From assembly GCF_024256425.1 (NCBI RefSeq), contig NC_071110.1, positions 2,188,274 through 2,252,273 of the forward strand: a DNA stretch of 64,000 bases, given 5' to 3'. The notes beneath the pieces were generated by a model. It was given only the letters and a program-made list of their open reading frames with translations, was not told the DNA's origin and ran no database searches. This DNA is from Clarias gariepinus (Eukaryota). A program made the position numbers and the translations under genes. This document shows, in pieces, positions 19,850 to 49,925 of the stretch; position 1 is the stretch's first letter, and each line of letters starts with the position of its first letter.

Positions 19850-21127
19850 TCCTTTTCACGAAAGGTTGTGGTACATTTGTTTTTTGTTGAAAATAATAAA
19901 TAATCAGTCAAATAAAAATATGCTCTGAGATGCTTGAAACAAAATGTTAAAATAATTCCTAAGAAACAATGGTGAAACAGGTTTTGATCTTATGCAAATA
20001 TGACCTGGAATGATGAAATATTGAGCAAATTTCTTGATAAAAATATTTAATTTATAGTGCAACTAAATATAAGAATCATTGTTACATGCAGTATGAGTGA
20101 GTCTTTATCTGTGCATTTAAAGTCCTTGGTTCACAAGGAACAGATGGAGAGTGACCGTGAGTCCCCAGTGATGATTCCTACCCTGGGTCTCAGGCTGGCT
20201 GAGGAAATGTAGAAGCAGATGTATGAGCTGGATCAAGGGTTTGGAGAATTTGACTCGGGATTAAATGAGCATGTAGAATTAGTAAAGGAAAAGAAGATGA
20301 AGAAGAAGAAAGGAAAAGAAGATTTAAACATTTTATTCATTTCAGTTTACATCATTAAAAAATCTTTTTTTACTGATCCTTTTGAGCTCTTTGATGCTTT
20401 GCAAACTAAGCTACCGGTCAAAATTTAGACACATATTTTAATTCCATGGTCTTTCCTGATTTTTTTTTTTCTCTACATTAAAAAAAAAAACATCCAAAAA
20501 CATGCAATAATCTCCTTTGAACAGTTGAGATTTAGATGTGTCTGCTGCTTATGCTTTGTAAAGCCTTCATAACGGCTCTAATCTGAGGTACTGTTAATTG
20601 GTGACTTTTCAGACTGGTGTTCAATAAGTGAACTTCTCCTCTGCAGAGGTAAGTTTTGGTCTTGGTTTCCTGGAATGGTATTCATGACAGCCAGTTTCAT
20701 CATGGTGATTGATGGATTTTCCAAAAGCATTTGCCAATACTGCCCTGGCAAGACCTTTTTGAGAAGCTGTCCTAAAAAAACAACTGACTGGTTACTGTTA
20801 TTACTTAATAACCTAATGCCATATGTGATTTCATAGTCTTTAAATCTCAGAAATTATATAACAAAAAACTTTTAATTAAAAGGTTTGTCCAAACTTTGCC
20901 CAATTACCTTTATGTGACACTGTGTGTTATTTGCCTTACAGCCTTTACAACACATTTAAACTGTTTCTTTTACTCTTTCTGTCTGTGATTTTTACAACAG
21001 TACAAGCTGCTGAATTTGGTCTGCCGCTCTCTGGTTAATAAAACCCTCTTCTCCTCAGCTCCTGGTGAAGTGTACTGTGATAAAGAAGGGTCGCTGTGGA
21101 GTGAAATCGAATTCCTGGGGAATTTTA

Positions 21128-21300
21128 TTCTTTTAATAGCCTTTGAAGGCGAAAATTGCCTACTTAACTGCAGTAGAAACAGCCCTGCTTCTCTCGCTGA
21201 CGTTGGCGTGCCTCGGGAGATATTCGGGCCCGGTCGACCTTCATAGGCTGGACAGGGAAATCAGCGGTTTGTGTGTGTGTGTGGTTGGGGGGGGGTTTGG
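21128..21300 (-). mobile_element. Isolated fragment of the Gypsy gag CCHC region (second copy)
   Basis: About 90% identical to 13063..13215, including the downstream G-run. Confidence 0.6.
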
Positions 21301-25175: not shown

Positions 25176-25776
25176 TTTATTATAATATTGTGACGATGTG
25201 TGTTTCCAATTAAAGCGTCTTTTCTTTTGTGTAACTGCTCTTTAGTGAATGTACTGCAACACCAAACCCCCTATAAAGAAAAAGGCTAATCACGCAGGGC
25301 ATCAGCCTCAAATGACTCAGCTCAAAGGTGTGTCTCTTGCTCTCTTTCTCTTTTTCCTATGTGGGATTCGTCAAAAAAATACCAAAGAAATTTAGACATT
25401 GCCTGACAGCGGGCTGACAGAGTCTATGCGTTACGCTCCAGATTCCTTTCATCCCTGGTTTATATTATTCAAAACTTGAAGTAAACCAGAAAGCCAGGTC
25501 TGTATATAACAGTTAGTGTTCACTAATAATCTTCTGTCTTGAACGCTTTTTTTATTGCTGCTTGCTGATTTCTTATTTTTTTAAATATATTTTCTTAATA
25601 TGATTAATCTTTTATTTAATTTTCTTAATATGATTCAAAAGCTACCCTGATTTTTAAATTCAAAAGTTGTCTTACTGTATGACCGTTAAGCCTTTATACA
25701 TCACATTTTAGTCACAATGTACTTAAATAAATTTTTATACAAGTCGATGAGAAAGTCAGGTACGTTGTGTTTTTAG

Positions 25777-25917
25777 GTGTTGCTCCTGGTCATGATGATC
25801 TGCTACTGTAGTGAGCACGCACAGCTCCTCCTGGCAGACAGCAATGGTTTTCAGGAAGTGCAGATTAAGTCAGATTGGCTTTTAGAGAATGTAAGAAAAG
25901 TGTCCAAGCTGCTCAAG
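25777..25917 (+). CDS. Candidate coding exon (47 codons, phase 0-0) with a hydrophobic signal-peptide-like start
   Basis: It is preceded by the acceptor ttttag and followed by the donor gtcagt. It translates to VLLLVMMICYCSEHAQLLLADSNGFQEVQIKSDWLLENVRKVSKLLK. I have no homology assignment for it. Confidence 0.3.
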
Positions 25918-26366
25918 GTCAGTCATTAAGTTTTAAATATTTGTCTAATATCTGTGTTTTTTTCCCTATAAGACTTTAGTTTATAATTCTTTTTAATGTT
26001 GCAATTTGGAATTGTTGAAATCTGATCCAAAGAACTGCAGAACACATTTATATTTAATAAAATTATAACTGTTATTGAAACACATACACATATATGTACA
26101 TATACTGTAATTGTTATAAATAATTAAGTTAACACTAAATGAAAATCAGAAAATCCATGTTCATGATGTTGTAAAAGGTTGTAAAATGCTGGGAGGACTG
26201 GGAGGATTCATTCCAAAAAATCCCGCACGAAACCATTTTCTCCAAGCTTCTTGAGGTGAAAACAAATGTCTTCACTTAAATATGATCTGAACTTGAATAT
26301 TTAAAATAATTTTTATTTATCTTTAATGTAATATTTAAATGTGTTTGTGTCTTATTTGTTACTCAG

Positions 26367-26488
26367 GCGAACAGCATCATCATAATGGGCGATTTTGCGA
26401 CTGAATGGGTGTTGACGTGTGCGGGTAAAAGATTCAAGAGAATGTCAATCTGTGAACCTTTATTGGTGAAGATTTTATTCAACCAGTC
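26367..26488 (+). CDS. Candidate coding exon, continuing from 25777..25917 (possibly via a small exon at 26178..26255)
   Basis: It follows the acceptor ttactcag and translates to ANSIIIMGDFATEWVLTCAGKRFKRMSICEPLLVKILFNQS. It ends either at the TGA at 26490-92 or at the overlapping consensus donor tcGTGAGT. Confidence 0.25.
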
Positions 26489-27029
26489 GTGAGTTCTGTT
26501 CAGGTTATAGTTTATAGAAGAAATATAACACATTTAAACTGTATTTCAAAACATGATATTTATTGTAAACATATTGTGCATATACAGTGCAAATCCAAAA
26601 GTTTTAAGTGTTTGTGCATTTTTTGAGTTTTTGAGTTTTGAGTTGCCATTGTTAAGAGAATTGGGGAAAACCTGGCAACTTTTTCCACAAGTTTTTATGA
26701 GCACAAGCTTTAGCACAAGCCTAGTCAATGTTCTGAAAACATTGTTCTAAAACAACAAAATCATTTAAAACAAACAAAACAGCAAAAACAATACTGTACT
26801 GCATATTTTTTAAATCTTTATTTGTTTTTTTCATGCCGTATTATTGTCCTAACTGTTGGATATAAGTGAAATATATATTCAATAACACAATTCTACTTTC
26901 AACATGTCTCTTCTTAATTTTTATATTTTTAGTCGAACTTTTGTAGAAACTGAATCTGATCCTAAAACACTGACACTGCATGGCTTTAGTAAACAGATCC
27001 TTAGGTAACATCACATTTTTCTGCAAAGT

Positions 27030-27342
27030 GTAAGGGTTAACCCCTAGAGGGCGCCAAAGCGCCCAAAGTTTGGTTTTCGTTGTGTTGATTTTGTTGTAGT
27101 TTTGTTTAGTTTGGACTTCATGTCCCAGACTGCACCTTGGTCAGGTGACATAAGGATTCACCTGAACCGAGGTAAGCTAATTAGGTTTATTATAAATAGC
27201 CTGACTGGAGCACAGTCAGGCGTCTAGCTTTAGTTGTTATTTATATGATTTATGTCGGTGTTTATTTATGTGTTTATTTAAAATAAAAACCTTTATTGAA
27301 ACGCCAGCTCGCCTCCTGCAATTATGCCACCCAAACACAGTT
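27030..27342 (-). mobile_element. Solo LTR (reverse orientation) of the small LTR family seen at 36552..38563
   Basis: It is the reverse complement of LTR 36552-36878, from ggttaaccc.ttaca to gccagctcgcctcctgca.ttatgccac. It abuts a 5'-truncated LINE that begins at about 27342. Confidence 0.65.
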
Positions 27343-29450
27343 AGGGATTATAAAACACCAACATCCGGTATGACGAACGCGGACGCGACTCTGGCAGATG
27401 AGCTGAACACTTTCTATGCTCGTTTCGAGGCTGCAGCTAAAGACGCTAGCGATGCTAAGGCTAGCCGCGCTAACGGCTACAGACAGGAAGACACTGCCAG
27501 CACCGGAAACGCGTTCATTATCACTGAACATGACGTGAAGAGAGCCTTCAAGAGAGTGAACACCAGACGAGGCAGCAGGACCAGCAGGACCAGACGCAAA
27601 CCAGCTAGCACCTGTGTTCACTGAGATATTCAACATCTCTTTTATCTCAGTCGGTGATCCCCCCTTGCTTCAAAAAGTCCATCATTGTTCCTGTCCCGAA
27701 GAAACCTCAACCTGCTTCTCTCAATGACTACCGCCCTGTAGCCCTCACCTCAGTAGTGATGAAGTGCTTTGAATGCCTGGTCAGAGACTTCATCATTACT
27801 TCACTACCGGACACACTGGACCCACTACAGTTCGCTTACCGTCAAAATCGTTCACAGACGATGCCATCTCTTATCTACTCCACACATCACTTACTCACTT
27901 GGACTCTAGAAGGGGGAATTATGTTAAAATGCTCTTCATCGACTACAGCTCTGCATTCAATACAATTCCCTCCACACTCACCACCAAGCTGGAGCACCTG
28001 GGACTCAGCTCATCTATGTGTCAGTGGATCTCCAACTTCCTAACTGGCAGACCACAGGCAGTAAGGATGGGCGGACATGTCTTAGCCTCCATCACTCTCA
28101 GCAATGGAGAGGTGTGTTCTGAGCCCCCTGCTGTACTCTTTGTACACATATGACTGTGTGGCCACTACCAGCTCCACCACCATCATTAAGTTTGCTGACG
28201 ACACCGTTGTGGTGGGCTTGATCTCTGATAACAACAAGACAGCCTACCTGAAGGAGATTAGGAATCTGAAGAACTGGTGCCAGAGGAACAACCTCCTTCT
28301 AAACGTCAGTAAGACAAAGGAGTTGATAGTGGACTTTAGCACTAAGCAGGAGAGGAACTACCAGACCCCCGTCATCAACGAGAGCCCAGTGGAGAGAGTG
28401 GACAGCTTCAAATACCTTGGTGTTCACATCACGCAGGACCTGTCATGGTCCTGTCACATCAACACCGTGGTGAAAAAGGCCCGACAGCGTCTCTACCACT
28501 TCAGACGCTTGAAAGACTTCCGACTGCCCACCAAGGTGCTCAGAAACTTTTACTCCTGCACCATAGAGAGCATCCTGACAGGAAACATCTCAACCTGGTT
28601 CAGGAACAGCACCATGCAGGACAGACGAGCTCTACAAAGGGTGGTGCGATCAACTGAGCGCATCATCCGCACCGAGCTCCCTGACCTGCACTCAATCTAC
28701 AGCAGGCGGTGCTGGACCAAGGCCAGGAAGATTGTGAAGGACCTCAGCCATCCCAACAATGGACTGTTCTCTGTTGATGTCAGGAAAGCGATTCCGCTCC
28801 CTGAAGGCCAACACAGAGAGACTGAGGAGAAGCTTCTTCTCACAGGCGATACGGTCTCTTAATCACACCACCACACAGTACTGACCCACACACATGGTTT
28901 TTACACACACACTGGACATTCTGGACATTCGTTTACACTAGTGGCCACTGCACAATTACACCTGGTGGTCATCATATCACTCTGTCACAAGTCACAGTGA
29001 TTAAATAAATCACTTTTGAAGCATATTTTGCACTGCACTAGACACTTTAAATATGTGGATTGCACAAACGTTGGACATTACCATTCTTTCATTACTATTT
29101 ATTTTAACACCATTCCACACAAAAATTACATAAATATATACCTACCCGTTCAGCTGCTCTTATTGTTTTATATTTCTTCATACATTCTTCAAATATTTTC
29201 TATATTGTGTATTTTTGTCATACAGTTATTAATTTTTTTTAACTTTATTTTTTATATTTTATTTTATTCTTTCCTAGTTTTATTTTATTTTTTATATTTA
29301 TTTCCTATTACTATTCATAGTCTTCTATTTTAGGTCACAAGCAGTTGTCTAAGCATTTCACTGCATATCGTACGTTATATCGTGTATGACTGTGTATGTG
29401 ACAAATAAAATTTGAATTTAAATTGAATTTGAATTTGAAAGGTTCGAATC
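27342..29450 (+). mobile_element. CR1/L2-clade (Rex/Babar-like) LINE, 5'-truncated, with RT and 3'UTR
   Basis: The RT ORFs 27654..28862 read PVPKKPQPASLNDYRPVALTSVVMKCFE...FAYRQNRS...LFIDYSSAFNTI...KFADDTVVVGLI...C-term LPEGQHRETEEKLL. The region before it (TSGMTNADATLADELNTFYARFE) matches the LINE at 63114. The 3'UTR ends ...gtgacaaataaaatttgaatttaaattgaatttgaatttgaaa. Confidence 0.75.
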
Positions 29451-30304: not shown

Positions 30305-32022
30305 TGTAGCGAATAACAGGGCTTTCATAGAGAGAACAGTCAATGGATCACATTCCTGAACCCCCTCTGTAAAATGACAAAACTCCACAAGGCCAGATGC
30401 TTTAAAGTAAACCCCCGAAACCGAGGGTGTAAATCGGCGATCCGGTGAACAAAGAAAACAGTTTTACAGCTTCACCCCAAGCACGGGGGGGAGAACTCAT
30501 CACACCTGGACACTCTCTCGACCTCCGGAAGACATGTCTTTCCATGAACAAAGGCATACGGCATGGACACTATTTCGAACATCTTTAAAGTGTGCCAGTA
30601 GTTCAAAACGTATTCACATATAATTACTCAGTTCCTTTTATTCCTGTGTATACTGTATGTTTGATTATTTTGCATAACTTTAAGGGTGTAATCAGCAGTT
30701 ACAAACCCTTTTATTAGATAAAGGAAGGAATGAGGGGGTAAGATATGTAATGTTTGGTGTCAATCTCAAGCTGGCTTTATTCCAAGAATGTTGGTGAACA
30801 CGAGAAATTGGTAGCATGAACCGAGCTCATACAAAATTACTTTTTATAAAGTATTAAAAACTCCAACTGGATGGGTCACACGTGACAGCCGAAACACCGA
30901 GCTAATTTATGCACAACAGGAGGAACCACGTGAGGCATGGCTAAGCCCCGCAACCACATCCGATTGGACCAATCACCCGTGGGACAGACTGATCCCGAAG
31001 GGGCAAAAACCCTAAGGAAGTCTACAGAAAACGTAAAGTGGAGTCGAGAAGTTAACATCACAATTGCAACCTACAACATCTTCCAAGCAGCTTGGGCTTC
31101 TGTCCTTGCGGCGGTATGGCGCCGCTGCTGGCGTCATCCGCTCTTCAAGAACTCTCAACGAGACTTCGTGCTAGAACTCCAAAGTACCGCACGAAGGAAA
31201 CCTCAGGAGTAGTTCCAGAGCGCAGCCATCGGTAACCAGGCAAACAACGCCTTACCGAAGGGCTTTCCCCACAGACGTCATCTTTACAACAGCGCAGCAA
31301 CCAATCAGCAACGCCGTGATTCCCTTCACTGGGGGCGAACCAACGGATGAAAATGAAACATAACGCAAGTAAACAAACAAAGCTGCATACCTTGCTGAAG
31401 TTGGTGTTCGTTTCATAACTAAACCAGAAGATTAAACCCAAGACTCTGCTCTTGTGACTTTCGTTGATCTAGTAAACAGTACTAGAATAACTTCATTTTA
31501 TTTCCAAACTGTTTGTGTGTATGTGTGTGTGTGCGTGCGTTCAAGTAGTGTAGTTTCATGTATCGTAGACTAGTCAAATAAATTCTTGTTTCGTTATAAA
31601 GTACTCTTGTCTTGGTCATGTATTTTAAAGTCTAAACATTTGCCCAGATCGTGTTACCTTGCTCATAATTGCTAAATACTAGATTTTGTGTTAAAGCCGT
31701 TGGCCATGTAACCAGAACTGGTAAGATACACTAAATTGTGCTAAACACTGGATGGGTGTCGATAAAGTGTACATTATAAATTTTGATTTAGTTAATCAAA
31801 TTAACCCGAAACGTTTAAGATTCGATACAACTCTGACCCAGAGCTAAACATTACTTATTAATAGTGAAGGATGCGTTGGCATTGTGTCCACATTAAAATG
31901 TCTACATTTATCGGTAAACACTGCAAACGTCATTCATTGTCTTTATTATGTAAGCCCCACATGTTAATGATTAAGAATGCCGGCAGCCATTCATTGTCAT
32001 TATTACGTTAAAACCCTACAAT
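30305..32022 (+). mobile_element. Solo LTR (diverged) of the large LTR family at 50287..58750, flanked by a 5-bp duplication AATTG
   Basis: It is homologous along its whole length to 50287-52256 and 56807-58750. For example, ORF 30937..31212 reads MAKPRNHIRLDQSPVGQTDPEGAKTLRKST, against MAKPCNHIRLDESPVGRTDPQGTKTLRKST in the other copies. It begins TGTAGCG and ends ...AAAACCCTAC. The sequence aattg is found at 30300-30304 and again at 32023-32027. Confidence 0.7.
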
Positions 32023-32812: not shown

Positions 32813-32959
32813 TTTTAATTCAAAGTGCGGTTCCTCCAGATTTTTGGATAGTGTGGAGCAAATCGACAAACTGTACAAGATTGCTCCTCCAACAGGTTCA
32901 GCTGCAAACCCAGAGAGAAGCAGCAACATCATGCCCCTGCCTGCGGTCCCCAAACTCAG
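32813..32959 (+). CDS. NWD1/NWD2-family gene, exon containing a possible start codon (ATG at 32931: [10 protein letters not shown]...)
   Basis: It is flanked by the acceptor ccctgcag and the donor AG|gtacct. It stays in frame with the next exon across a phase-1 junction (AG|G -> R). Confidence 0.45.
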
Positions 32960-33230
32960 GTACCTCCATACACAACCTAATTATAAATATTTAAACACGT
33001 GCTCTGTTCTGTAAAGAAAACATTAAACAATTTTATATTTCTAAGAAACTGTATGAAAGCACTGGAGTGATGAATTATGTTTTTTTATCTGGTAATATTT
33101 AATTTTTTATTCAGTTTTAACCCCTTTTTTTTTTTAGATAATGAGATTAAGAGATTTTCCAAGTGGCATTTTTTATTTAAAAAAAAATTGAAACATTACC
33201 ACATTCACATCTTACCCTTCTTGTTGACAG

Positions 33231-33522
33231 GTGGTGCAGCATATGCGTCTTTGTCTCATCTACGTTCAGAGACATGCACGGTGAGAGAGACATCCTGGTC
33301 CACAGTGTTTTCCCAGAAATACGAAAACGAGTGGCTCCCTTCTGCCTCTACCTGCAGGAAGTGGACCTGCGCTGGGGCATCACCGAGAAGGAGTCAGCAC
33401 GCATCACTGAGATCTGCCTGCAGGAAGTTTGTCGCTCCCATGTGTTGCTGGGAATTCTGGGAGAGAGATATGGCTGGGTGCCGCCTCGCCCCCCGCTGCC
33501 TGACATGCCTCAGTACAGCTGG
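33231..33522 (+). CDS. NWD1/NWD2-family gene, DUF4062 exon
   Basis: The acceptor is ttgttgacag and the donor is TGG|gtaaga. It translates to [97 protein letters not shown]. This matches the conserved N-terminus of the NWD proteins; compare human NWD2 VRVFISANPEDTGAERQALRENVYPKLREFC...EFQVIDLYWGV...CFVGLLGEKYG and NWD1 FEVVDLRWGI...ALIGDQYGP. Confidence 0.8.
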
Positions 33523-34407
33523 GTAAGAACTCAAAGGGAAAGTGATAATTAATTATGTAATGATTTAATACTTTATTACTGTAGGCTTGTATGGTCACAA
33601 AGTTACATTTATTCATTTTGTATTTTTTTTATACTTTACTGCCAGAATGGAAGGTAACTGAGTAAATTTACTTACTTTCTGTACGTAAGTACTTATTTTA
33701 TGTATCTGTACTTTACTTGGCTCAGTGCGCATGTGTCGCTCTTATAGTCAACATCCATGAGCATGTGTACTGTTTACTAAAACACTGTGACCACATGTGT
33801 GCGCGTAAAGTGTCTTTTATTTTGTGTTTGTATGTGTTTGTGTAGAATGACTTTCACACACACAAACACACATAAGTTTACTGAATAGAGGCTCAACTGT
33901 GTGCTTCTGTGAGTGTAAGTCTCTATTTGGTAAAAAAAAAAAAGAAGAATTAAAGAATTCTTTGTCCCCTTTTGTCTGCAAGCTATGTGTGTCCATGTGT
34001 GCACAGGTGCTTTATCAGTAAACTGGTGTGTATGCGCAGACGTGTTTGTGTACTGTAAGTTAACCTACACAGCAGCCCCCTCCCTCCACTCCTTTCTTTA
34101 TTCTCAATCACTACAACTATGCAGTCATTTTTTAAAATAAATTACCGTTATTATGAGAAGTACATTTTTTCTGTGTCGATACCTAAAACATTATATACAG
34201 CAAAATGTATTTTTTACTCAGCACTGAATACCATCATTCAGATAAACATATTAAATACGAATACAAAAAATGAGTATAGGTTTTTATTTTGTACACTTTT
34301 GTAAGCTTTTTTGTGATCTTCATTAATGCCCAAAGCACAGCGAAAGTGATTATACAGAAATTAAGTTTTTCTAATACTGTAAATTTTTATTTTTATTACT
34401 GTATACA

Positions 34408-35357
34408 GTAGGGCTGCAACAACTAATCGATAAAGACAATAAAAATCGATGACTAAAAGCGTTGACAAAGAATTTCATAATCGATTAGTTGTGTCGCGCG
34501 ACGCGGCAAAATTTGATTATTAAAAAAAACTTTAGTCAAAGCGCGGAGCGTAATGAACACACTTTGTCTCGTGCCCTGATACTAACAGAGTTCAGCGCCT
34601 CATAGACAGAGCAGAGCAAAAATAAAAGAAAAAAGAAAACGAGGGGAGGCAGAGGAAAGATACATGGCAGAGTCTGCTGGGTCTTAGTGCTCGTCTCTTA
34701 CTCGTATAGTCAACATCCGTGCACGCGTGTACTGTTTACTATAACACTGTGACTACTTGTGTGTGCGCGAAAAACATATTTTATTTTGTGCCTGTATGCG
34801 TGTGTGTACAGTGCGCGTGTAAAGTCTCATTAGAGAAGTTTTCTCTCTGCAAGGTTTAGGCTGTTCTTTGCCTGCTGTGTGTGTGTGTGTGTGTGTGTGT
34901 GGACACCATGTCACACACAGACACATAGACCCCTCCTACTTTCACCTTCACAGACACACTCTTTCTCCCTGCTCTACACAGAAACACTGATTCTTTTCAC
35001 TGATTCGTTAGTGTGTTTTAAACAATTAAATTTGGTTTACGAGTGTTTTGGAATACGAGCTGCTTCCAGGAAGAATTATGCTCATAATCAAAGGTTCCAC
35101 TGTATATATTTGGCAGATGTAAAGCATACATGTCTATGTTTTTTTCGTTAGTCCATTTGTATTTTATTTTATTAATATTGTAACAGCTCAAGGAGCAACA
35201 TGTTTGTGCTCTTTCTAAAGATTAGTTCTGTTTTTGAATAAAGGATTGGAAATGAATGCTTATCTTGTTTCTTTTGGTTTTATCTGTTTAACCGATGAAA
35301 CGAAAAAATAATCGACAGATTAATCGATTAATAAAATAATTGTTACTTGCAGCCCTA
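34408..35357. mobile_element. hAT-type non-autonomous element (MITE-like, about 950 bp)
   Basis: The terminal inverted repeats are TAGGGCTGCAAcaactaatcgat ... atcgattaataa..TTGCAGCCCTA (hAT YARNG-type terminus). The left 8-mer gtatacag (34400-34407) is repeated at 35358-35365, though that copy overlaps the start of the adjacent Tc1. Confidence 0.6.
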
Positions 35358-35362
35358 GTATA

Positions 35363-36526
35363 CAGTGGGGTAAAAAAAGTATTTAGTAAGCCACCAATTG
35401 TGCAAGTTCTCCCACTTAAAAAGATAAAAGAGGCCTATAATTTTCATTATAGGTATACCTCAACTACAAAATAAGAAAAGAATTTCCAGAAAATCACATT
35501 GTAAGACTTTTAAAGAATTTATTCGCAAATTATGGTGGAAAATAAGTATTTGGTCAAAAACAAAATTTCATTTCAATACTTTGTTATACACCCAAACATT
35601 TTCTGTAAGTCTTCACATGGTTTTCACATACTGTTGCTGGTATTTTGGCCCATTCCTCCATGCAGATCACCTCTAGAGCAGTGATGTTTTGAGAATGTTG
35701 CTGGGAAACACGGACTTTCAACTTCCTCCAAAGATTTTCTATTGGGTTGAGATCTGGAGACTGGCTAGGCCACTCCAGGAACTTGAAATGCTTCTTATAA
35801 AGACACTTTTTATAAAGTACTCCTGGACAGGTACTGGCTTAAGCAGGGGGACAGGTCTGGCACTGCAGGATTTGAGTCACTGGCGGTGCAGTGTGTTACT
35901 GATGGGAGACTTTGTTACCTTAGTCCAGCTCACTGCAGGTCATTTACTAGGTCCCCCCGTGTGGTTCTGGGATTTTTCCTCACAGTTCTTGTGATCAGTT
36001 TAAACCCAACGGTGAGAGCTTGCGTAGAGCCCCAGATCGAGGGAGATTATCAGTGGTCTTGTATGTCTTTCATTTTCTATCAATTGCTCCTACAGTTGAT
36101 TTCTTCACACCGAGCTGCTTATCTATTGCAGATTCAGTTTTTGCACCCTGGTGCAAGTCTACAATTTTGTGTCCTTTGACAGCTCTTTGGTCTTGGCCAT
36201 AGTGGAGTTTGGAGTGTGACTGTTTGAGGTTGTGGACAGGTGTCTTTTATACTAATAGTGAGTTTAAACAGATGCCATTAATACAGGTAATGAATGGAGG
36301 ACAGAGGTGACAAAATACTTATTTTACTGAAGAATTTACCAAATAATAAATTAAAAATCCTACAATGTGATTTTCTGGATTTTATTTCCTTATTTTGTCT
36401 CTCATAGTTGAGGTATACAGGTATACATATACCTACTATATGATGAAAATTACAGGACTCTCTCATCCTTTTAAGTAGGAGAACTTGCAGAATTGATCGC
36501 TGACTAAATGCTATTTTGGCCCACTG
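35363..36526. mobile_element. Tc1-like DNA transposon with about 200-bp terminal inverted repeats, internally deleted (non-autonomous)
   Basis: It starts CAGTGGGGtaaaaaaagtatttagtaagccaccaattgtgcaagttctcccacttaaaaag, and its reverse complement is at 36320-36526. It is flanked by TA dinucleotides (35361-62, 36527-28). The internal ORFs do not encode an intact transposase. Confidence 0.75.
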
Positions 36527-36551
36527 TAATAAAAGAAAATGTTAAAGATAT

Positions 36552-38563
36552 TGTCACGATTCTTCCGTTGGTGTCTGTGTGTGCGTGGCATAATGTGCAG
36601 GAGGCGAGCTGGCGGTTTAGTATTCGGCTTTTATTAAATAAACACATAAAATAAACACCAACCTAAATCAACTCAAAGGACAACAAAAGCTAGACGCCTG
36701 ACTGTGCTCCAGTCAGGCTCTTTATAATCAACTTAATTATCTTACCTCGGTTCAGGTGAATTCCCACGTCACCTGACCGAGGTGCAGTCTGGGACACGCA
36801 GTCCAACTTAAACACAAACTATAACAAAAAACAAACAAACCCAGGCGCTTTGGCGCCCTCTAGGGGTTAACCATTACAGTACCCCCCCCCTAAAAAACGC
36901 TCCTCCGGAGCGTTACCGGAGGACCCGGACTCCCTCCCCAGCGGTCCCAGTTTGGACTCCCAACACCGAGACGGCTGAGGAGCTGGAGCGACGCTCGGCG
37001 GCGGCTGAGGAGCTGGAGCGACGCTCGGCGGCGGCTGAGGAGCTGGAGCGACGCTCGGCGGCGGCTGAGGAGCTGGAGCGACGCTCGGCGGCGGCTGAGG
37101 AGCTGGAGCGACGCTCGGCGGCGGTGGCTGAGGAGCTGGAGCGACGCTCGCTGAGCTGGGCGGCGCCGGCGGCGGAGCTGGAGCGACGCTCGCTGAGCTG
37201 GGCGGCGGCGGTGGCGGAGCTGGAGCGACGCTCGCTGAGTTGGGCGGCGGCGGCGGAGCTGGAGCGACGCTCGCTGAGCTGGGCTGCGGCGGCGGCGCTG
37301 AAGCGACGCTCGCTGAGCTGGGTGGCGGCGGCGGCGCTGGAGCGACGCTCGTTGAGCTGGGCGGCGGCGGCGGCGCGATGTCCTCAAAGCCGGGAGGCGG
37401 AGGAAGCAGCAGGCCAGCCTGGAAGCCCGGCTGAGGAGCCGGAGCGTCGTTCGCTGTGTCCCTCGGCGGCTGCTAAGCTGGCGCGATGTCCTCAAAGCCG
37501 GAAGGCGGAGGAAGCAGCAGGCCGTCCTCGAAGCCCGGCTGAGGCGCTGGCTCGATGTTCGTGCAGCTTGGAGGCGGCAGATCGGCAGTGCCGCACACGA
37601 CGCTTGGCGGCTGTGGAACGGGAGCGACGTCCCCCATGTCTGGCAGAGGCGGCGGCGGTGGAGTAAACGTGACTGGCAGCCGCGGCACGTAGACCTCCGC
37701 GTTGACTACAGGTGGGAGCGGGAGGAGGAGTGCGTCGTCCAGATTAGAGAGAGGGAGAGTATCCGGAGCTACATCGCGGTTCTCTCAAACCTGGACGAGC
37801 AGCCTTTGGAGTAGCGCCACCTGCTCCCGCAGGTCGGAAATGCGCTCTCTGTTTAGCTGTGCCAACAACGTGTAGTCCTCCTCCGTTAGATCCACGTCAC
37901 CGTCCTGCCAGGCCTCCTCGGCCCGTGCCTCTTGGATGGTGGTTTGGACCGTGTATCTCCCCGCTGCCTCACCCTTAAACGCCGTCCGCCGAATGGCGAG
38001 TCTGCAGCCTTCCCAGCTGTGCCGCGCTCTTATCTCTCGCTGCTCTTCGCTGTTTTCCAGCCAGTCCGCCGGTTCGATCAGCTTGCAGCCTTCCCAGCTC
38101 TGCAGGAGCTCTCTCTCCCCTTGCTCCTCGCTGTCCTCCAGCCATTCCGCCAGCTCGGGCGAGATGGTGATAGCGCCCCCCCAAAAAACGTCTGGGGGAG
38201 CGACCTCCGCTATGCCACTTCGACGGTCTAGCTTTCTGTCACGATTCTTCCGTTGGTGTCTGTGTGTGCGTGGCATAATGTGCAGGAGGCGAGCTGGCGG
38301 TTTAGTATTCAGCTTTTATTAAATAAACACATAAAATAAACACCAACCTAAATCAACTCAAAGGACAACAAAAGCTAGATGCCTGACTGTGCTCCAGTCA
38401 GGCTCTTTATAATCAACTTAATTATCTTACCTCGGTTCAGGTGAATTCCCACGTCACCTGACCGAGGTGCAGTCTGGGACACGCAGTCCAACTTAAACAC
38501 AAACTATAACAAAAAACAAACAAACCCAGGCGCTTTGGCGCCCTCTAGGGGTTAACCGTTACA
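36552..38563 (-). mobile_element. Compact LTR element (2.0 kb): 327-bp LTRs (TG...CA), 5-bp duplication GATAT, G-rich PPT-like run, internal minisatellite and two ORFs I do not recognise
   Basis: Direct repeats 36552-36878 and 38236-38563 are over 95% identical and run from tgtcacgattcttccg to ggttaacc.ttaca. The pentamer gatat sits at 36547-51 and again at 38564-68. On the minus strand a G9 run lies 3 nt from the LTR at 36879-36895. ORF 37785..38276(-) is 163 aa with an internal duplication (AEWLEDSEEQGERELLQSWEGCKL / ADWLENSEEQREIRARHSWEGCRL). ORF 36890..37495(-) runs over a 30/39-bp minisatellite. Confidence 0.75.
36955..37380. repeat. GC-rich minisatellite (about 30-bp unit x5, then about 39-bp unit x6) inside the compact LTR element
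   Basis: gcggctgaggagctggagcgacgctcggcg repeated five times, followed by g(t/c)ggcggagctggagcgacgctcgctgagctgggcggcg-type units. This produces long artefactual ORFs on both strands. Confidence 0.85.
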
Positions 38564-38676
38564 GATATTTATAGTTCCAGGGATTTTAATGAGTTTATTA
38601 TTTTTGAAGGTACATTACAGTTTTCTGTGACATTGTTAAATATTAATAGCTTTATAATTGTGTGTGTGTGTGTCAG

Positions 38677-38798
38677 TTGAAGTCGGCTCCTGAAGGTCTG
38701 TCGATTACAGAGATGGAGATCCGGCAGTTTCAGGCTAAGTTTTCTGATTCTGCTCAGAACCGCATGTTCTTCTACTTCAGATCTCCTCAGCTGCTCAG
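38677..38798 (+). CDS. NWD-family gene, next exon (phase 0 start, ends mid-codon)
   Basis: The acceptor (tg)n-tcag sits after the (TG)n tract and the donor is CAG|gtattt. It translates to LKSAPEGLSITEMEIRQFQAKFSDSAQNRMFFYFRSPQLL and its frame continues from the previous exon. Confidence 0.55.
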
Positions 38799-38827
38799 GT
38801 ATTTCACAACTTTAAATCTTTATATAT

Positions 38828-41722
38828 ATATACACTGCTCACAAAAATTAAAGGAACACTTTAAAGAAACACATTAGATACATCAGATCTCAATATGAAG
38901 TTGGATATCTATACAAATAACGACAGGGCAATGTCTTAGGAACAAAAGGATGCCAAGTCTTTTAATGGAAATAAAAGTTTTCAGCCTACAGAGGGCTCAA
39001 TTGTGTAGACACCCTAAAATCAGAGTGAAATGAAGATGTGGCAGGCTAGTCCATTTTTTCAAAAACTTAATTTCTGCAACTCAAAATGCTTTTCAGTATC
39101 TTGTGTGGCCCCCACGAGCTTGTATGCATGCTTGACAACATCGGGGCATGCTCCTAATGAGACAACGGATGGTGTCTTGTTGCATTTCCTCCCAGATCTG
39201 TGTGAGGGCATCCCTGAGCTGTTGTACAGTCTGAGGTGCGGTGCTTAATGGACCGAAACATAATGTCCCACAGATGTTCTATTGGGTTTAAGTCAGGGGA
39301 TCGTGAAGGCCATTCAATTGTTTCAATTCCTTCATCCTCCAGGTATTGCCTGCATACTCTTTTTTTTTTTTTTTTTTTTTCCCGGCCTGTCAGTATCACA
39401 GATAACACATAGCTGAGTGTATGTGTAGCTGTTCTATCATCATTTACAGCCATTTTTTTTTAATATTTATTTATTTATTTATTTATTTTGTTTGTTTCCC
39501 ATATTATAACAGACAAGACCGGGGACCAAAAAAAGAGAAGAGAGAGTAAAAAAAAAAAAAAATCAACCAAAAAAAAAAAAAATAATAAATAAATAATAAT
39601 AATAAAAAAAAAGAATAAAAATAAATAAACAAACAAACATTTAAGGGAAAAAAAAGGGAAAAGAGAGAGAAAAAAAGAAGAAGGGGGGAGTGGGAGGGGG
39701 GAGAGAATACAGTCAAAATTCGCTTCCGGACCTGCCGAAGAAAAAGAGAAAAAACAACAGAAGACACAACAGCAGAGAAACCGCAGCCACAACCAACACC
39801 TGCACGACTCGCGGCAAACCACAAATCCCAAAACCTGTTGAGCCGCGCACATAATAAAATATTTTGAAATAAACATTTTGTTTTGAAGCAACAGCAAAGA
39901 CAGTGTGTGTGTGAGCACCTGTTTGTACACCAGTGTGAACGTTTGTGTGCACACCTGTGTGTGTGAGCGCGCTTGTTTTCATAGGGCTCCTCCATATAAA
40001 TGTTTAATAGTGTGTGTGGGGGACCACAGTCCCGTCCCGCGAGGCATGGAGCAGATATGGCGGAGACACGGGTCCCAGACATCCAGAGGGCCCCCAGAGC
40101 ACAGAAGTCTTAGGAGAACCACCGCAGGGACAGCCCCCCCACCCCGAAAGGGGCAGCGGAGAGCCCAGAGGGGGGTCATCTAGCAGCCCCAGTGCAGACG
40201 CCACAGGGGGCCGTGGTGACAGGACCGCAGGCTCCGCCGGTGGTCGTCCACTCCGAGGCAGTCCGGTCCCTGGGTCCAGAGATCCCACGGCCCCCCCCCC
40301 ATCCACCAGCCGGTGCCCCGCCAAGCCAGGAGAGCCAGATCCCGCCCAGCGACCGCCGCGAGTGAGCCAGCGCTCACCCGAGCGCCCCGCCCCGGAGCGA
40401 GAAACCAACAACCCACCAGCGGCTGGGGGCACCCCACAGCTGTGTGTGGTGGCAGAGCAGGGGGGGCCTGGGATGTTGAGAGAGGTGGAGTCTAGGACCT
40501 GACCTGACACCTAAACGTAGACAGCCAGGCACACACATACACAAACATACATTCCCACCCTCATACACACAAACAAATATTCACGCACTCACACATGTAG
40601 ACACACAAAAATAGACAGTATACACACTCACACTCCCCATATACCCACTTCCCTCCGCCGTGGGGACAGAAAGACCACCCCGGTCCCCGCAGCAGCGGAA
40701 AGGACCACCAGCCCAGACCCTGCCTGCATACTCTTGCCACATGGACCAGGCATTGTCGTGCATTAGGAGGAAACCAGGACCTACTGCACCAGCGTAGGGT
40801 CTGACAAAGGGTTCAATGATTTCATCTGGTTACCTTATGGCAGTCAGACCACCATTTCCTAGGCAGTAGAGGTCTGTGCGTCCCTCCATGGATATGCCTC
40901 CCCAGACCATCACTGACCCACCACCAAACCTGTCATGTTGAACAACGTTGCAGGCAGCATAACGTTCTCCTTGTCTTCTCCAAACTCTTTCACGTCTATC
41001 ACAGCTGCTCAGGGTGAACCTGCTCTCGTCTGTAAAAAGTACAGGGCGCCAGTGGCGGACTTGCCAATTCTGGTGTTCTTAAGCAAATGCCAGTCGAGCT
41101 CCACGGTGCTGGGCAGTGAGCACAGGGCCCACTACAGGACATCGGGCCCTCAGGCCATCTTCATGAAGTCTGTTCCTGATTGTTTGGGTAGAGACATTCA
41201 CACCAGTGGCCCTCTGGAGGTCATTCTGTCTTGCACAAAGGAGCAGGTATCGGTCCTGCTGATGGGTTGAGGACCTTGTATGGCCCTGTCCAGCTCTCCG
41301 AGAATAACCGCCAGTCTCCTAAAAACTCCTCCATGTTCTGGAGATTGTGCTGGGAGACACATTAAACCTTCTTGCTGCAGCACGTGTGGATGTGCCATCC
41401 TGGAGAAGTTGGACAACCTGGCCAACTTCTGTAGGGTTAAGGAATCGCCTCATACTGCCAGTAGAGATAATTACTCAAGCCAAAACTAGCACGAGTGGAA
41501 AACCAGCCAAAAAAGATCAAGAGGGAGAAACTTGAAATGACCTCCACATGTAAAATCGGTCCTGTTTTGAGGGTTTTCTAATTGTTACCATTGTAGTGCA
41601 CCTGTCGTTAAGTCCATGAACACCAATACAGCTGAAAGTGATTAACAATGCCCTCAGCTGCAGATTTAATTGATTTCATGCCAGGCCCAATAAAAAAAGT
41701 GTTCCTTTAATTTTTGTGAGCA

Positions 41723-41726
<4 letters not shown>
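38828..41726 (-). mobile_element. Tc1-like DNA transposon (second family), transposase pseudogene disrupted by a retroposed insertion
   Basis: The terminal inverted repeats are tacactgctcacaaaaattaaaggaacac (38830-38858) and its reverse complement at 41696-41726. Transposase pieces lie on the minus strand; 39154..39453 reads ...[23 protein letters not shown]. Confidence 0.75.
39358..40739 (-). mobile_element. Retroposed insert (1.38 kb, poly(A) on minus strand, 14-bp target-site duplication) nested inside the Tc1 transposase
   Basis: The 14-mer tgcctgcatactct occurs at 39344-39357 and again at 40726-40739. The insert starts on the + strand with T20, which is a poly(A) tail on the minus strand, with low-complexity (AAATAAAT)n / A-rich sequence next to it. 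The remainder is GC-rich with no credible ORF. Confidence 0.65.

Positions 41727-41772
<46 letters not shown>
41727..41772. repeat. (AT)n microsatellite adjacent to the Tc1 terminus
   Basis: An atatat tract. Confidence 0.9.
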
Positions 41773-41776
<4 letters not shown>

Positions 41777-42452
41777 TACAAATAGCAAATATATTGTAAA
41801 GTAAGAGTAAAATTATATTTGGTTTTTATGAAATTTAAATTTGCTGAAATAAAACACTGAAAGTTGTGTAATAAACACATGAGAAAACAGAGGGTGCTTC
41901 AATAAGATTCAATTACTGTTACCATCCTGAGGCTGATTATTATAATATTTAATATACCAACAATAAATATATATAAAACCAATAAATATATTAAATATAT
42001 TTATTTAATATACCCACATGTCATGTAGAGTTTGCTATTTCACATTATTATTTTTAGTAGAGAAATAAAACAATATTTTGTATTTGTTTATATTACCATT
42101 GATTAACATGCAAACTCCAGGAGACAATTTATTGACTTTTGCATTTAGGACTACATTTGTCTGTTGTGTTTCATAAAGGGTTTGTATTGAATGTTTTACA
42201 TTTTAAACATTTAGTGTTTGCAGATTATTTATTTCCTTCTTATTAGTGTCAATTTTTATTTATTTATTTTACAGTTCTTTTATTTTATTTAATAAAACAT
42301 TTTTTTTTTTGGACGTTTCTTAGTCAACCTATAAATCACAATATATGCAATGTATTGTTGGAATGGCTGAAATAATCATATTATACATTTGTCATGCCTG
42401 CTGTTAACTTCTTGCTTTAATTATTTAATGACAATTATACACTTTTATTTAG

Positions 42453-42566
42453 ATCAGTGCCTGAGGCTTGGAGAGATGACATTGCAGCTGAATCCAAAAA
42501 AACTGCAGCTAAAATGGTTAAACTAAAGGAATGGATCAAGAGCAATCACTTTAGTTTAATGGAAAA
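42453..42566 (+). CDS. NWD-family gene, exon
   Basis: The acceptor is ttttatttag and the donor is AA|gtaaga. The first base completes codon AGA from the previous exon, giving (R)SVPEAWRDDIAAESKKTAAKMVKLKEWIKSNHFSLME. Confidence 0.55.
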
Positions 42567-42916
42567 GTAAGAACAGGATATAGATTATTTACTTTATTCA
42601 GCTTTTTCGAAAATTTTGTTTGTAATGTTAAACGTAATGAAAATTCTCTTCAGTTTATCCAAACTTCAAGGGACACACAAGAAAAAAAAAACAATTGTAA
42701 TAGACTGCTAGGTTTATACATTTCATTACTAATATGGAAAAAAGTCAGAAAGGAGGTACAGTATAATCGGTACTTTATTTATGTTTTATAATGATAAAAT
42801 GCCTGTTGAACAATGCTACTGAATGATTAAAAGTTATATGTTATGAATAATGTTTTAAATGAATAATCTTCATAGTAGGTGTTGCATTGTTAAACACTGT
42901 GTTCTTCTCTCTGTAG

Positions 42917-43034
42917 TTACCCGTGTGAGTGGGACGGAGTCATAGATGGAAAACCGTACGTAAAAGATCTGGATGATTTTGCCAAGGCTGTGATGAAAGA
43001 TCTGTACTTTGCAATACATAAGCTTTTTGTTAAG
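42917..43034 (+). CDS. NWD-family gene, exon
   Basis: The acceptor is tctctctgtag and the donor is AAG|gtcaga. It translates to (N)YPCEWDGVIDGKPYVKDLDDFAKAVMKDLYFAIHKLFVK. The codon phases chain correctly through all five exons. The rest of the gene (NACHT, WD40) must lie downstream and I did not resolve it. Confidence 0.55.
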
Positions 43035-45695: not shown

Positions 45696-47030
45696 ACATT
45701 TACATTTACATTTAGGCATTTGGCAGACGCTCTTATCCAGAGCGACTTACAAAAAGTGCTTTAATGTTTACAACATTGGATACATACTTACACTGGGTTA
45801 ACTAGGTTAATAACTAAGTACCATTAGTCCAACACAACTGAGGTTTTTTTTTTTTTTTTTTTTTTTCGGGGGGAGGGGGGTTAGTCCAAGTACTGGAGAA
45901 ACAGATGCGTCTTGAGTCGTCGTTTAAAGATAGTCAAAGTCTCTGATGTACGGACATCTAGAGGAAGTTCATTCCACCATCTAGGTGCCAGAACAGAAAA
46001 GAGCCTGGATGAATGCCGCCCTCGATCCCTGAGAGATGGTGGGATGAGGCGAGCAGTGCTGGAGGATCGGAGGCAACGTGGTGCAGTGCGTGGTGTAATT
46101 AGCGCAGAGAGGTAAGTGGGTGCTGGGCCATTTTTGGCTTTGTAGGCAAGCATCAGTGTTTTGAATTTGATGCGGGCAGCTACAGGAAGCCAGTGCAGGG
46201 AGCGGAGGAGTGGGGTGGTGTGGGAGAACTTGGGAAGGTTAAAAACGAGTCGTGCTGCTGCATTCTGGATCAGTTGCAGAGGACGAATCGTGGACAGAGG
46301 CAGGCCTGCCAGGAGTGAGTTGCAGTAGTCCAGTCTTGAAATAACAAGGGACTGAACAAGCACCTGAGTAGCCTGTGAAGAAAGAAATGGGCGAATTCTT
46401 CTGATATTGTAAAGAAGAAATCGACAAGAGCGAGTAAGGTTAGCGATGTGTGGGGAAAATGACAGATGATTGTCCACGGTTACCCCAAGATTGCGGGCGG
46501 TGGTTGAGGGAGTGATTTGGTTGTTGTCCATGGATATCACAAGGTCTTGACCTGGAGATGAGTCACAAGGGATAAACAACAGTTCGGTTTTACTGAGATT
46601 GAGCTTCAGCTGATGAGCAGCCATCCAAAATGAGATGTCTGCCAGACATGCTGAGATCCGGGTGGAAACCTGAGTGTCAGAGGGAGGAAAGGAGAGGACA
46701 AGTTGGGTGTCGTCTGCATAACAGTGGTATGAGAATCCATGCGATGATATGACCTTACCAAGAGACCGGGTATAGAGGGAGAACAGAAGAGGACCAAGTA
46801 CTGAGCCCTGCGGGACACCAGTAGAGAGTCTACGTGGGGCAGATGTAGATCCCCTCCATGTTACCTCATATGACCTATCTTTAAGGTAAGAAGCAAACCA
46901 TTGCCACGCTGTTCCACAAATTCCAAGGCTTGTAAGGATAGATAATAGAATCTTGTGGTTCACGGTGTCAATACATATATTGACGGTGTCTCGATTAATA
47001 AGCATATCCTGAAACAAAGTTAGTCAAGAA
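45696..47030 (-). mobile_element. L2-type LINE, 5'-truncated (RT plus complete 3' tail), near-intact ORF
   Basis: The 378-aa ORF 45881..47017 carries [35 protein letters not shown] and ends ...[23 protein letters not shown]. The 3'UTR contains tttacatttaggcatttggcagacgctcttatccagagcgacttaca. Confidence 0.85.
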
Positions 47031-47039
47031 TCTAGATAG

Positions 47040-49925
47040 CAAGTGCACAGAGAATTGCCTCAAACCCCTGTTTACCAAGAAATTACAAGTTTTATAGACA
47101 ATTACCTCAGTCTAGCATGTGTCTTCAACATCTCTGTCAGTTCTCACAGACCAAGATGCTTTTACTCGCAGATCTCCCAAAAACCACATCTACCCTCCAG
47201 TACTGTCTCATTGCCCTGCACTGGTGGTAGGTGGGCTCTGGAACTGCCAATCTGCTGTAAAGAAAGCAGATATTATCTCTGCCCTAGCTACCTACTACTT
47301 TTTGACTTTCTGGCACTAACTGAGACATGGATATCCCCTCAGAACTCAGCTACACCGGCTGCCCTATCCTCTGCCTATATATTCTCTCACGCTCAACGAG
47401 AAACTGGTAGAGGTGGTGGTACGGGTTTCCTGTTGTCCAAGAGATGGTCCTTCTCGCCTATCCCCCTGTCTCATCTCAGTTTTTCATCATTTGAATTTCA
47501 TGCAGTTAAGGTAACCTCTTCAATTAACCTCCACATCCTGGTTATTTACCGTCCTCCTGGCTCTCTAGGAAACTTTCCAGATGAAATGGATATGCTTCTT
47601 AGTATTTTTCCTTCTATTAACACTCTTCTCACTGATTTCAACCTTCCATCGGACAAACTACAATCCTCTTTCCTTCTCCCTCTCCTTAACTCCTTCTCTT
47701 TAACTCTAAACAGTTGCCCTCCCACACACAAGGCAGGGAATTTTCTCGACCTCGTTTTTTGCCGCCCTTCCCCAGTCACAGATATCACTACTATTCCTCT
47801 TCATAAATCTGATCATTACCTGGTATCCTTTACCATAACCCTTTCTATTCTATGTAAACCTAAACACCACAATGTCTCTCTTACCCGCAGAAACCTTCAC
47901 TCTGTCTTCCCTTCTTCTGTGTCTCCCTGCATCCTATCATCCATCCCAGACCCAGACTCTACCACTAGAGACTGCGACTGAAACTTTCCTCTCATCTCTT
48001 TCCTTATCCATAGATCTCCTTTGCCCGCTGTCATCTAAACCAAGAAAGACGTCTTGTCCTGCTCCTTGGCTATCTGATGTACTGCGCAACAACAGGAGAG
48101 AATTAAGAACTGCAGAGAGAAGATGGAAAAAAGCGCAACTTGATGCAGATCTCATGTCTTACCAGACTCTTCTTTCCAAATTCTCATGTGACGTGACTTC
48201 TTTAGAGAAAAGCTAAAGGGCCTCTGCACATGATCCTGGCAAACTCCACAACATCTTCTCCTCACTACTCAACCCACCAATTCCTCCTGCCCCTTCCTTT
48301 CTGACTGCTGATAATTTTGGCACATTCTACAATGAGAAGATTGCAGCAATCCGCCAGTCCTTCGCTCCCAACCAAACTCCTACGGCAGAACCTCAGGACC
48401 TTCCCTTCCCTCCCTTAGCAGAATTCTCCATCCTGTCATCTGATGAGATTCAGCAGATCTTCTCGTCATCCAACCCAACCACCTGTTCATTAGACCCAAT
48501 CCCTTCCACAATGCTCTAGGCCATCTCATGAGACCTCCTTCCCTTCACCACAACCATCATCAACCATTCCATATCATTTGGTCATGTTCCTGCTGCTTTT
48601 AAGAAGGCAAGGGTTATTCCCATCCTCAAGAAACTCTGCCTGGACCCATCAGAAGTTAACAACTATCGCCCGGTATCACTTCTCTCTTTTATTTCCAAAA
48701 TTCTTGAAAGAACTGTTTATAACCAAATGTCTCTTTATTTTTCACATAACAACCTTAATGATCCCAACCAATCTGGATTCAAAGTGGCACATTCTACAGA
48801 GACTGCCCTTCTGTCAGTCACTGAGAAGCTCCATGCTGCTAGATCTGCTAAACTGTCATCTGTCCTCAACCTCCTGGATCTGTCAGCTGCATTTAACACG
48901 GTGCACAACAAGCTTCTATTATCTATTCTTACAAGCCTTGGAATTTGTGGAACAGTGTGGCAATGGTTTGCTTCTTACCTAAAAGATAGGTCATATGAGA
49001 TAACATGGAGGGGATCTACATCTGCCCCACGTGGACTCTCTACTCTCTACTGGTGTCACGCAGGGCTCAGTACTTGGTCCTCTTCTGTTTGACCTCTATA
49101 CCCGGTCTCTTAGTAAGGTCATATCATCGCATGGATTTTCATACCATTGTTATGCAGATAACACCCAACTTACTTTCTCCTTTCCTCCCTCTGACACTCA
49201 GGTTTCCACCCAGATCTCAGCATGTCTGGCAGACATCTCATCCTGGATGGCTGCTCATCAGCTAAAGCTCAATCTCAGTAAAACCGAACTGTTGTTTATC
49301 CCTTGTGACTCATCCTCATGTCAAGACCTCGTGATATCCCTGGACAACAACCAAATCACTTCTTCAGCCACCGCCCGCAACTGATCCAGAATGCAGAAGC
49401 ACATCTTGTTTTTAACCTTCCCAAGTTCTCCCACACCACACCACTTCTCTGCTCCCTGCACTGGCTTCCTGTAGCTGCCACAAATTCAAAACGCTGATGC
49501 TTGCCTTCAAAGCTAAAAATGGCCCAGCACCCACTTACCTTTAAATAACACCACGCACTGCACCACGTTCCCTACGATCCTCCAGCACTGCTCGTCTTAT
49601 CCCACCCTCTCTCAGGGATCGAGGGTGGCATTCATTCAGCCTTTTTTCTGTTCTGACACCTAGGTGGTGGAACGAACTTCCTCTAGGTGTCTATCTTTGA
49701 CAATCTTTAAACGACGACTCAAGACGCATCTGTTTCCCCAGTACTTGGACTACACCCTAAAAAAAAAAAACTCTTCCCAGTTGTGTTGGACTAATGGCAC
49801 TTACTTATTAACCTAGTTAACCCAGTGTAAGTATGTATTCAATGATGTAAACTTTAAAGCACTTTTTGTAAGTTGTCTGGATAAGAGTGTCTGCCAAATG
49901 CCGAAATGTAAATGTAAATAACCTT
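47040..49925 (+). mobile_element. L2-type LINE, near full-length (APE-like endonuclease plus RT plus 3' tail), frameshifted
   Basis: The endonuclease ORF 47043..47981 reads LALTETWISPQNSATPAALS...FLLSKRWSFSPIPL...LHILVIYRPPG. RT pieces at 48578..49384 read [36 protein letters not shown]. The tail at 49600-49925 matches the reverse complement of 17420-17700. It lies head-to-head with the minus-strand copy ending at 47030. Confidence 0.8.

Follow-up and report, generated by a model that had tools for sequence, protein, structure and literature searches.

This report concerns a stretch of 64,000 nucleotides from Clarias gariepinus (RefSeq assembly GCF_024256425.1, contig NC_071110.1, positions 2,188,274 to 2,252,273, forward strand), referred to here as the window, and five exons lying in it between positions 32813 and 43034, which a preliminary description had taken for the start of an NWD1/NWD2-family gene. 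We found that these exons are almost certainly the NADase part of a copy of TEP1. Counting the loss of function as part of the statement, we consider it probable that this copy no longer works, most likely as an unprocessed pseudogene or a decaying paralogue. TEP1 (telomerase protein component 1) is a protein of vault particles with the domain order TROVE, DUF5920, DUF4062, NACHT and WD40. In the course of events that we propose, the copy would have lost the integrity of its TROVE region as well as its NACHT-WD40 body, its introns would have been inflated by Tc1, hAT, long terminal repeat (LTR) and long interspersed nuclear element (LINE)-type insertions, and the middle block of exons 14-22 would not yet have been hit by decay.

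Identity of the locus as TEP1

The five exons are real: each interval has AG immediately before it and GT immediately after it, and, read from 32814, they join into a frame of 264 codons with no stops. The product contains the DUF4062 domain that had been predicted for it (Pfam E=1.3e-13, 51.4 bits against a cutoff of 24.7), and the parent gene had correctly been placed among the NACHT/WD40 STAND NTPases. The assignment to NWD1/NWD2, however, did not hold. The 264-amino-acid product is 67% identical, over its full length, to internal residues ~864-1127 of full-length fish TEP1 (2,600 amino acids), and the best protein match of the joined exons is TEP1 and not an NWD-family protein. Each of the five exons taken singly has tblastn or hidden Markov model (HMM) matches to TEP1 proteins (E 1e-7 to 1e-57). 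The sole PDB match is 11gz_A ('Telomerase protein component 1', human TEP1; E=2.5e-60, query residues 50-263), and in a search of 5.8 billion proteins the best named relatives are 'telomerase protein component 1-like' fragments carrying DUF4062 and DUF5920. An exhaustive search that started from a fragment of frog TEP1 yielded full-length proteins of 2,500-2,900 amino acids, the closest of which, from Acnodon, Metynnis, Trichomycterus and Electrophorus, are named TEP1 or TEP1-like by their sources; the Acnodon protein carries TROVE, DUF5920 and TEP1 beta-propeller families. In a neighbour-joining tree of the 264-amino-acid region, the window sequence is placed among the teleost TEP1s, where its sister group is formed by the otophysan sequences (characiform, siluriform, gymnotiform, carp), and Kryptolebias, Hippocampus, paddlefish and the tetrapods lie outside this group. 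By this placement the host is probably an otomorph teleost.

TEP1 exons were mapped by tblastn and HMM from 15 vertebrate TEP1s in all six frames of the window, and were numbered after the coding-exon maps of three orthologous loci (Acnodon, Electrophorus and Trichomycterus), among which Acnodon has 56 coding exons. Upstream of 32813 the exons are collinear on the plus strand, at ~20.1-27.0 kb, and cover residues ~200-863, so that the locus extends over 20.1-62.9 kb of the window at the least. The tblastn and HMM searches detected neither exon 1 nor exon 2 of TEP1 in the 20 kb upstream of the mapped exons. The map is as follows.

20132-20299, plus strand: exon 3 remnant, residues ~200-250 of Acnodon TEP1; in-frame TAG at 20210, weak alignment
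21001-21147, plus strand: exon 4, start of TROVE; AG acceptor, approximate boundaries
22362-22493, plus strand: exon 6, TROVE; intact, 71% amino-acid identity to Acnodon TEP1
22567-22638, plus strand: exon 7 remnant; TGG to TGA at 22576, AG acceptor lost
22924-23042, plus strand: exon 8, TROVE; intact
23442-23603, plus strand: exon 9, TROVE; frame intact, donor position uncertain
25280-25336, plus strand: exon 10 remnant; 7-codon deletion, CGA to TGA at 25313
25364-25498, plus strand: exon 12 remnant; TGA at 25415, no AG acceptor
25777-25917, plus strand: exon 14, start of DUF5920; intact, canonical AG/GT
26196-26267, plus strand: exon 15; intact
26367-26488, plus strand: exon 16; intact
26933-27004, plus strand: exon 17; intact, donor joins 32813 in frame
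32813-32959, plus strand: exon 18 (first of the five described exons), end of DUF5920 and linker; internal
33231-33522, plus strand: exon 19 (second of the five), core of the DUF4062/NIR TIR-like NADase domain, with the STFRD and GERYG arginines
38677-38798, plus strand: exon 20 (third of the five), with TEME, whose Glu is equivalent to human catalytic E1008
42453-42566, plus strand: exon 21 (fourth of the five)
42917-43034, plus strand: exon 22 (fifth of the five), end of the NADase domain; donor AAG/GTCAGA
62535-62618, plus strand: exon 54 remnant, C-terminal beta-propeller; TGA at 62556
62822-62905, plus strand: exon 55, Beta-prop_TEP1_C; open frame

Along these exon products the Pfam families follow one another collinearly: TROVE from exons 6, 8 and 9 (92.5 bits, cutoff 23; collinear with TEP1 residues 361-515), DUF5920 from the product of exons 14-18 (60.1 bits, cutoff 27), DUF4062 (50.1 bits) and Beta-prop_TEP1_C from exons 54-55 (37.6 bits, cutoff 32). 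Exons 18-22 encode the end of DUF5920 and the whole of DUF4062 (the NIR, TIR-like domain), and the first ~30 residues of the 264-amino-acid product alone give a weak Pfam match to DUF5920. DUF4062 had been thought to open the protein, at the methionine of the motif MPLP. This methionine occupies an internal Leu/Val-to-Met position, and because upstream of it the frame is TEP1-homologous and stays open as far as the acceptor at 32813, 32813-32959 is an internal exon and not the first coding one. Moreover, since the five exons (49/97/40/38/39 codons) agree in size and boundaries with TEP1 exons 18-22 of Acnodon, Electrophorus and Trichomycterus, the methionine of MPLP is not a start codon.

A gene of the NWD1/NWD2 family, beginning here with an N-terminal DUF4062 and continuing downstream into NACHT and WD40, would account for the presence of DUF4062, which both NWD1 and NWD2 carry next to NACHT (10.64898/2026.05.01.722283). 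It would not account for upstream exons that encode TROVE and DUF5920 in the TEP1 order, nor for exon 18, which is homologous to TEP1 residues 864-911 ahead of the presumed start. The scores point the same way, with ~390 bits for TEP1 proteins against <=183 for proteins with N-terminal DUF4062, whose 40-47% identity covers residues 50-258 only and which, as comparators, are unnamed metagenomic or protist sequences. Finally, the downstream exons match the TEP1-specific C-terminal propeller family, and no NACHT was found in the window. We regard an NWD1/NWD2-family gene as exceedingly improbable and, judging from homology, TEP1 as the near-certain identity of the locus.

Probable decay of the locus and the state of exons 14-22

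The gene is not intact. We found four well-supported in-frame stops, all TGA (22576, 25313, 25415 and 62556), and a weaker TAG at 20210. The AG acceptors of exons 7 and 12 are lost, exon 11 has collapsed together with both its flanking introns to ~27 bp, and exons 5 and 13 were not found between their neighbouring exons in the window by tblastn or nucleotide alignment. The TROVE region is thus fragmentary, with exons 5, 11 and 13 gone and exons 7, 10 and 12 disrupted. Frameshifts were considered as the cause of the apparent divergence of the damaged exons and were rejected: only short stretches of these can be aligned to Acnodon exons at the nucleotide level, which argues for real decay or deletion.

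The NACHT and WD40 exons had been expected downstream of 43.0 kb. Segment-wise tblastn with TEP1 residues 1128-2516 gave no match in either strand of the window for exons 23-53, that is, for the 31 exons of NACHT and nearly all WD40 propellers, and a 15-sequence TEP1 HMM run over the six frames gave none for model positions 1124-2533. There is no Walker A motif on the plus strand of the window; the minus strand has two Walker-A-like matches, at 43812 and 47926, which were dismissed because they fall inside repeats. The next TEP1 sequence after exon 22 is that of exons 54-55, at 62.5-62.9 kb, and the window holds no other propeller exons. In Acnodon, exons 23-53 span ~39 kb, whereas the corresponding interval of the window measures 19.5 kb and consists of LINE and other repeats. 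Because of the stops and the missing exons, the locus cannot encode a canonical TEP1.

In the midst of this damage, exons 14-17 join exons 18-22 into an open frame of 400 codons with canonical splice sites throughout, and this frame passes the Pfam cutoffs of DUF5920, with 60 bits, and of DUF4062, with 50 bits. What this block would do can be taken from two 2026 preprints. According to these, DUF4062 is a TIR-like NADase domain, also named NIR; the human TEP1 domain in isolation suffices for NADase activity, which depends on E1008, with R908 and R976 contributing (bioRxiv 10.64898/2026.05.01.722283; 10.64898/2026.09.04.749371). The equivalents of R908 (STFRD), R976 (GERYG) and the catalytic E1008 (TEME) are kept in the window, as judged by HMMER alignment to the 11gz chain, whose residue number equals the human number minus 893 (Arg, Arg, Arg and Glu at chain 15, 61, 83 and 115 are human 908, 954, 976 and 1008). 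Human R954, the Arg of the BB loop, aligns with a 2-residue gap common to all fish TEP1 orthologues compared. On paper, then, the catalytic apparatus is intact and NADase activity is predicted.

Change in the protein sequence is nevertheless accelerated. Among residues invariant in 15 vertebrate TEP1s, 41 of 47 are kept in exons 18-22 and 33 of 37 in the intact upstream exons, so that ~12% are replaced, and the invariant Arg of WxxxRVF is now Cys. In relative-rate tests with paddlefish as the outgroup, exons 18-22 show 31 changes unique to the window against 18 unique to the orthologue (p=0.01-0.09), and the damaged exons 32 against 11 (p ~0.002). We read the whole locus as being under relaxed constraint, the block of exons 14-22 having either been hit later or remained constrained, and we infer from this together with the lesions that the copy has lost its function.

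Several points weigh against this inference. The block itself is one of them, 400 codons being uninterrupted and every splice site in it canonical. The dN/dS (nonsynonymous to synonymous substitution ratio) of exons 18-22 is 0.19-0.24 against the three orthologues, only modestly above the 0.11-0.16 found among functional orthologues; dS is saturated in these comparisons (about 1 or more), and therefore the ratio mostly reflects older history, before any loss of function. When neutral decay was simulated, no one level of divergence reproduced both 5 or more stops among the 175 damaged codons and their absence from the 562 intact ones, though the codons had been grouped post hoc; the fairer test, of whether one contiguous block of 400 codons would escape every one of the four or five stops, gave p ~0.02-0.04. 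Because of this escape, part of the locus may still be under selection. The 31-exon gap, furthermore, could in principle be an assembly error.

This last point belongs to an account in which the gene is an ordinary, intact TEP1, and its missing exons and stops are artefacts of assembly or sequencing, for instance of a repeat mis-join at 43-62 kb. That interval is almost wholly made of repeats, among them two LINE copies in inverted orientation and 2-kb copies with 98-100% identity, and regions of this kind are prone to collapse or mis-joining. The four stops, however, are base substitutions (TGG or CGA to TGA) and not the homopolymer indels typical of sequencing error; the intervals from which exons 5, 11 and 13 are missing are short and free of repeats; splice acceptors are lost; and amino-acid evolution is accelerated across the whole locus. 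We consider such an artefact improbable.

It is somewhat less improbable, though still doubtful, that the locus is a truncated TEP1-derived gene that remains functional and expresses the DUF5920 and NIR/TIR-like NADase block (exons 14-22, and perhaps also exons 6, 8 and 9). The open frame with its canonical splice sites, the retained catalytic E/R/R residues, a dN/dS of ~0.2 and the concentration of stops and excess amino-acid change outside exons 14-22 all favour it, as does the activity of the isolated human domain cited above. Its transcript might then, if we may venture so far, end just past exon 22 through read-through (VR-stop, an AATAAA following 25 nt further on), or else be spliced in frame to exon 55; exon 22 ends in phase 0, and the AG acceptor of exon 55 is in phase 0. 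In the sequence as it stands, unspliced read-through of exon 22 gives VR and then TAG at 43041, and the AATAAA lies at 43067, possibly by chance in an AT-rich intron. On the other side, 6 of 47 otherwise invariant residues are replaced, including the Arg to Cys change in WxxxRVF, and the lineage is accelerated ~1.7-fold. The statistical contrast between the block and its surroundings depends on how the exons were divided post hoc and on four or five stops, and the dN/dS carries the saturation noted above. An unregulated NADase domain was, moreover, reported to be toxic when overexpressed in E. coli (10.64898/2026.09.04.749371). Predicted fish 'TROVE domain-containing' proteins of ~980 amino acids, which were checked as possible natural truncated TEP1s, show TROVE, DUF5920 and DUF4062 and may be partial gene models.

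Mobile elements and repeats

The introns had been described as swollen by nested mobile elements, and this is what we found: introns 19 and 20 hold four transposons and one nested retroposed insert, with exact target-site duplications (TSDs).

34409-35357, strand not assigned: hAT-type miniature inverted-repeat transposable element (MITE), 949 bp, intron 19; 8-bp TSD GTATACAG; insertion point exactly at the left end of the adjoining Tc1
35363-36526, strand not assigned: non-autonomous Tc1-like element, 1,164 bp, intron 19; ~190-bp inverted termini, TA/TA flanks
36552-38563, plus strand: LTR element without pol, 2,012 bp, intron 19; LTRs identical at 324 of 327 positions (99.1%), TG..CA ends, 5-bp TSD GATAT
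38833-41725, minus strand: Tc1-like element, 2,893 bp, intron 20; termini 94% identical, TA/TA flanks, DDE_3 transposase remnant
39362-40720, minus strand: retroposed insert, 1,359 bp, inside the intron-20 Tc1; T23 tail (poly-A on the minus strand), 15-bp TSD TGCCTGCATACTCTT

The hAT MITE, the Tc1 element and the complete LTR element had all been named for the intron between the second and third exons. The two 'LINE 5' fragments' named beside them could not be linked with any of the LINEs of the window; what is present there is a pair of direct repeats of ~110 bp, 82% identical (33739-33844 and 34701-34808). For the next intron, the 2.9-kb Tc1 with its retroposed insert was confirmed at the positions listed above. 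Intron 19 measures 5,154 bp, or ~1.0 kb once the elements are subtracted, against 0.8 kb in Acnodon; intron 20 measures 3,654 bp and, without its elements, ~0.76 kb, still above the ~110 bp of Acnodon.

The interior of the LTR element (36942-37560) consists of GC-rich 30-bp and 39-bp tandem repeats that are open on both strands, with Arg/Ala/Ser-rich open reading frames (ORFs) of 180-200 amino acids, and gave no pol or gag match. A solo-LTR-like copy at 27029-27340 (minus strand), 84% identical to the LTRs of this element, lies 25 bp downstream of exon 17 and adjoins what remains of a LINE reverse transcriptase at 27268-28862.

A repeat family of ~2 kb is present in three copies, at 50284-52258, 56806-58752 and 30366-32019. 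Two of them are 98-100% identical and 6.5 kb apart, and the third, in TEP1 intron 17, is 89% identical; each has a ~110-amino-acid ORF, 'MAKP(C/R)NHIRLD...', without a Pfam match, and internal 60-bp tandem repeats. Two inverted LINE copies (RVT_1 and an endonuclease-like ORF) at 45745-46971 and 48893-49873, with 90-95% identity, form a palindrome of ~4 kb where TEP1 exons 23-53 would be expected. A 212-bp tandem repeat at 52545-53180, in 3 copies that are 67-98% identical, is a source of spurious weak protein matches. Two such matches to the N-terminal motif of DUF4062 (52643-52696 and 52855-52908) were examined by translation and blastn as possible duplicated exon fragments and proved to be chance matches within this repeat.

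The 20 kb upstream of the TEP1 exons are mostly transposon remnants (3867-4379, 7198-7689, 10685-13328 and 17859-19197, each on the minus strand), and include a Tc1/Sleeping-Beauty-type helix-turn-helix, LINE reverse-transcriptase fragments and Gypsy/retrovirus-like pol (RT_RNaseH_2, integrase-like).

Relation to known systems and meaning

Like vertebrate TEP1, the locus runs in the order TROVE, DUF5920, DUF4062 and then what remains of the TEP1 C-terminal propeller, and like the fish orthologues it has an identical exon 18-22 structure, 67% identity to otophysan TEP1, and the catalytic Glu and two active-site Arg. It departs from vertebrate TEP1 in the absence of NACHT and almost all WD40 exons (23-53), in TROVE exons that are partly deleted and carry stops, and in the substitution of ~12% of vertebrate-invariant residues. 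With NWD1 and NWD2 it shares a DUF4062-family domain beside a STAND NTPase architecture; in those proteins, however, the domain is N-terminal, with neither TROVE nor DUF5920 before it, whereas here it is internal (TEP1 residues ~912-1127). The bacterial DUF4062/NIR effectors (Swarozyc, Avs-NIR, Vulcan and Vesta) belong to the same Pfam family, PF13271, and have the catalytic glutamate, with NAD+-depleting chemistry according to the literature, but the identity is only 40-47%, and these bacterial defence systems use sensor modules of other kinds. Introns kept in place, nonsense substitutions, of which two are CGA to TGA, the loss of splice sites, deleted exons and accumulated transposons are all features of unprocessed (duplicated or unitary) vertebrate pseudogenes. 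Unlike these, the locus retains a fully intact contiguous block of 400 codons, more than a simulation of uniform decay predicts.

The main value of the finding is one of correction: DUF4062 beside STAND modules is not diagnostic of NWD1/NWD2, since TEP1 has the domain internally. The distinction matters for function, because the TEP1 domain is reported to act as an NADase, whereas no such activity was seen with purified human NWD1 and NWD2 (10.64898/2026.05.01.722283); purified NPHP3 was inactive as well (10.64898/2026.05.01.722283; 10.64898/2026.09.04.749371). The locus also illustrates clearly what an unprocessed and decaying gene copy inflated by transposons looks like, and an annotation pipeline could mis-call it as a short 'DUF4062 protein'.

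There is, in addition, a slight prospect that a teleost lineage has reduced TEP1 to a short DUF5920 and NIR/TIR-like NADase gene, discarding the TROVE ring and the NACHT/WD40 modules. In TEP1 the former is RNA-binding, and the latter serve as oligomerisation and sensor modules. The idea arises because exons 14-22 are still whole and seem to be held under constraint, in a locus that has otherwise decayed. If it were true, the locus would encode a vertebrate NADase that stands alone and descends from a vault protein, and if the block is expressed, it would be a natural experiment on the TEP1 NADase outside its NACHT/WD40 and RNA-binding context, with a bearing on vault function.

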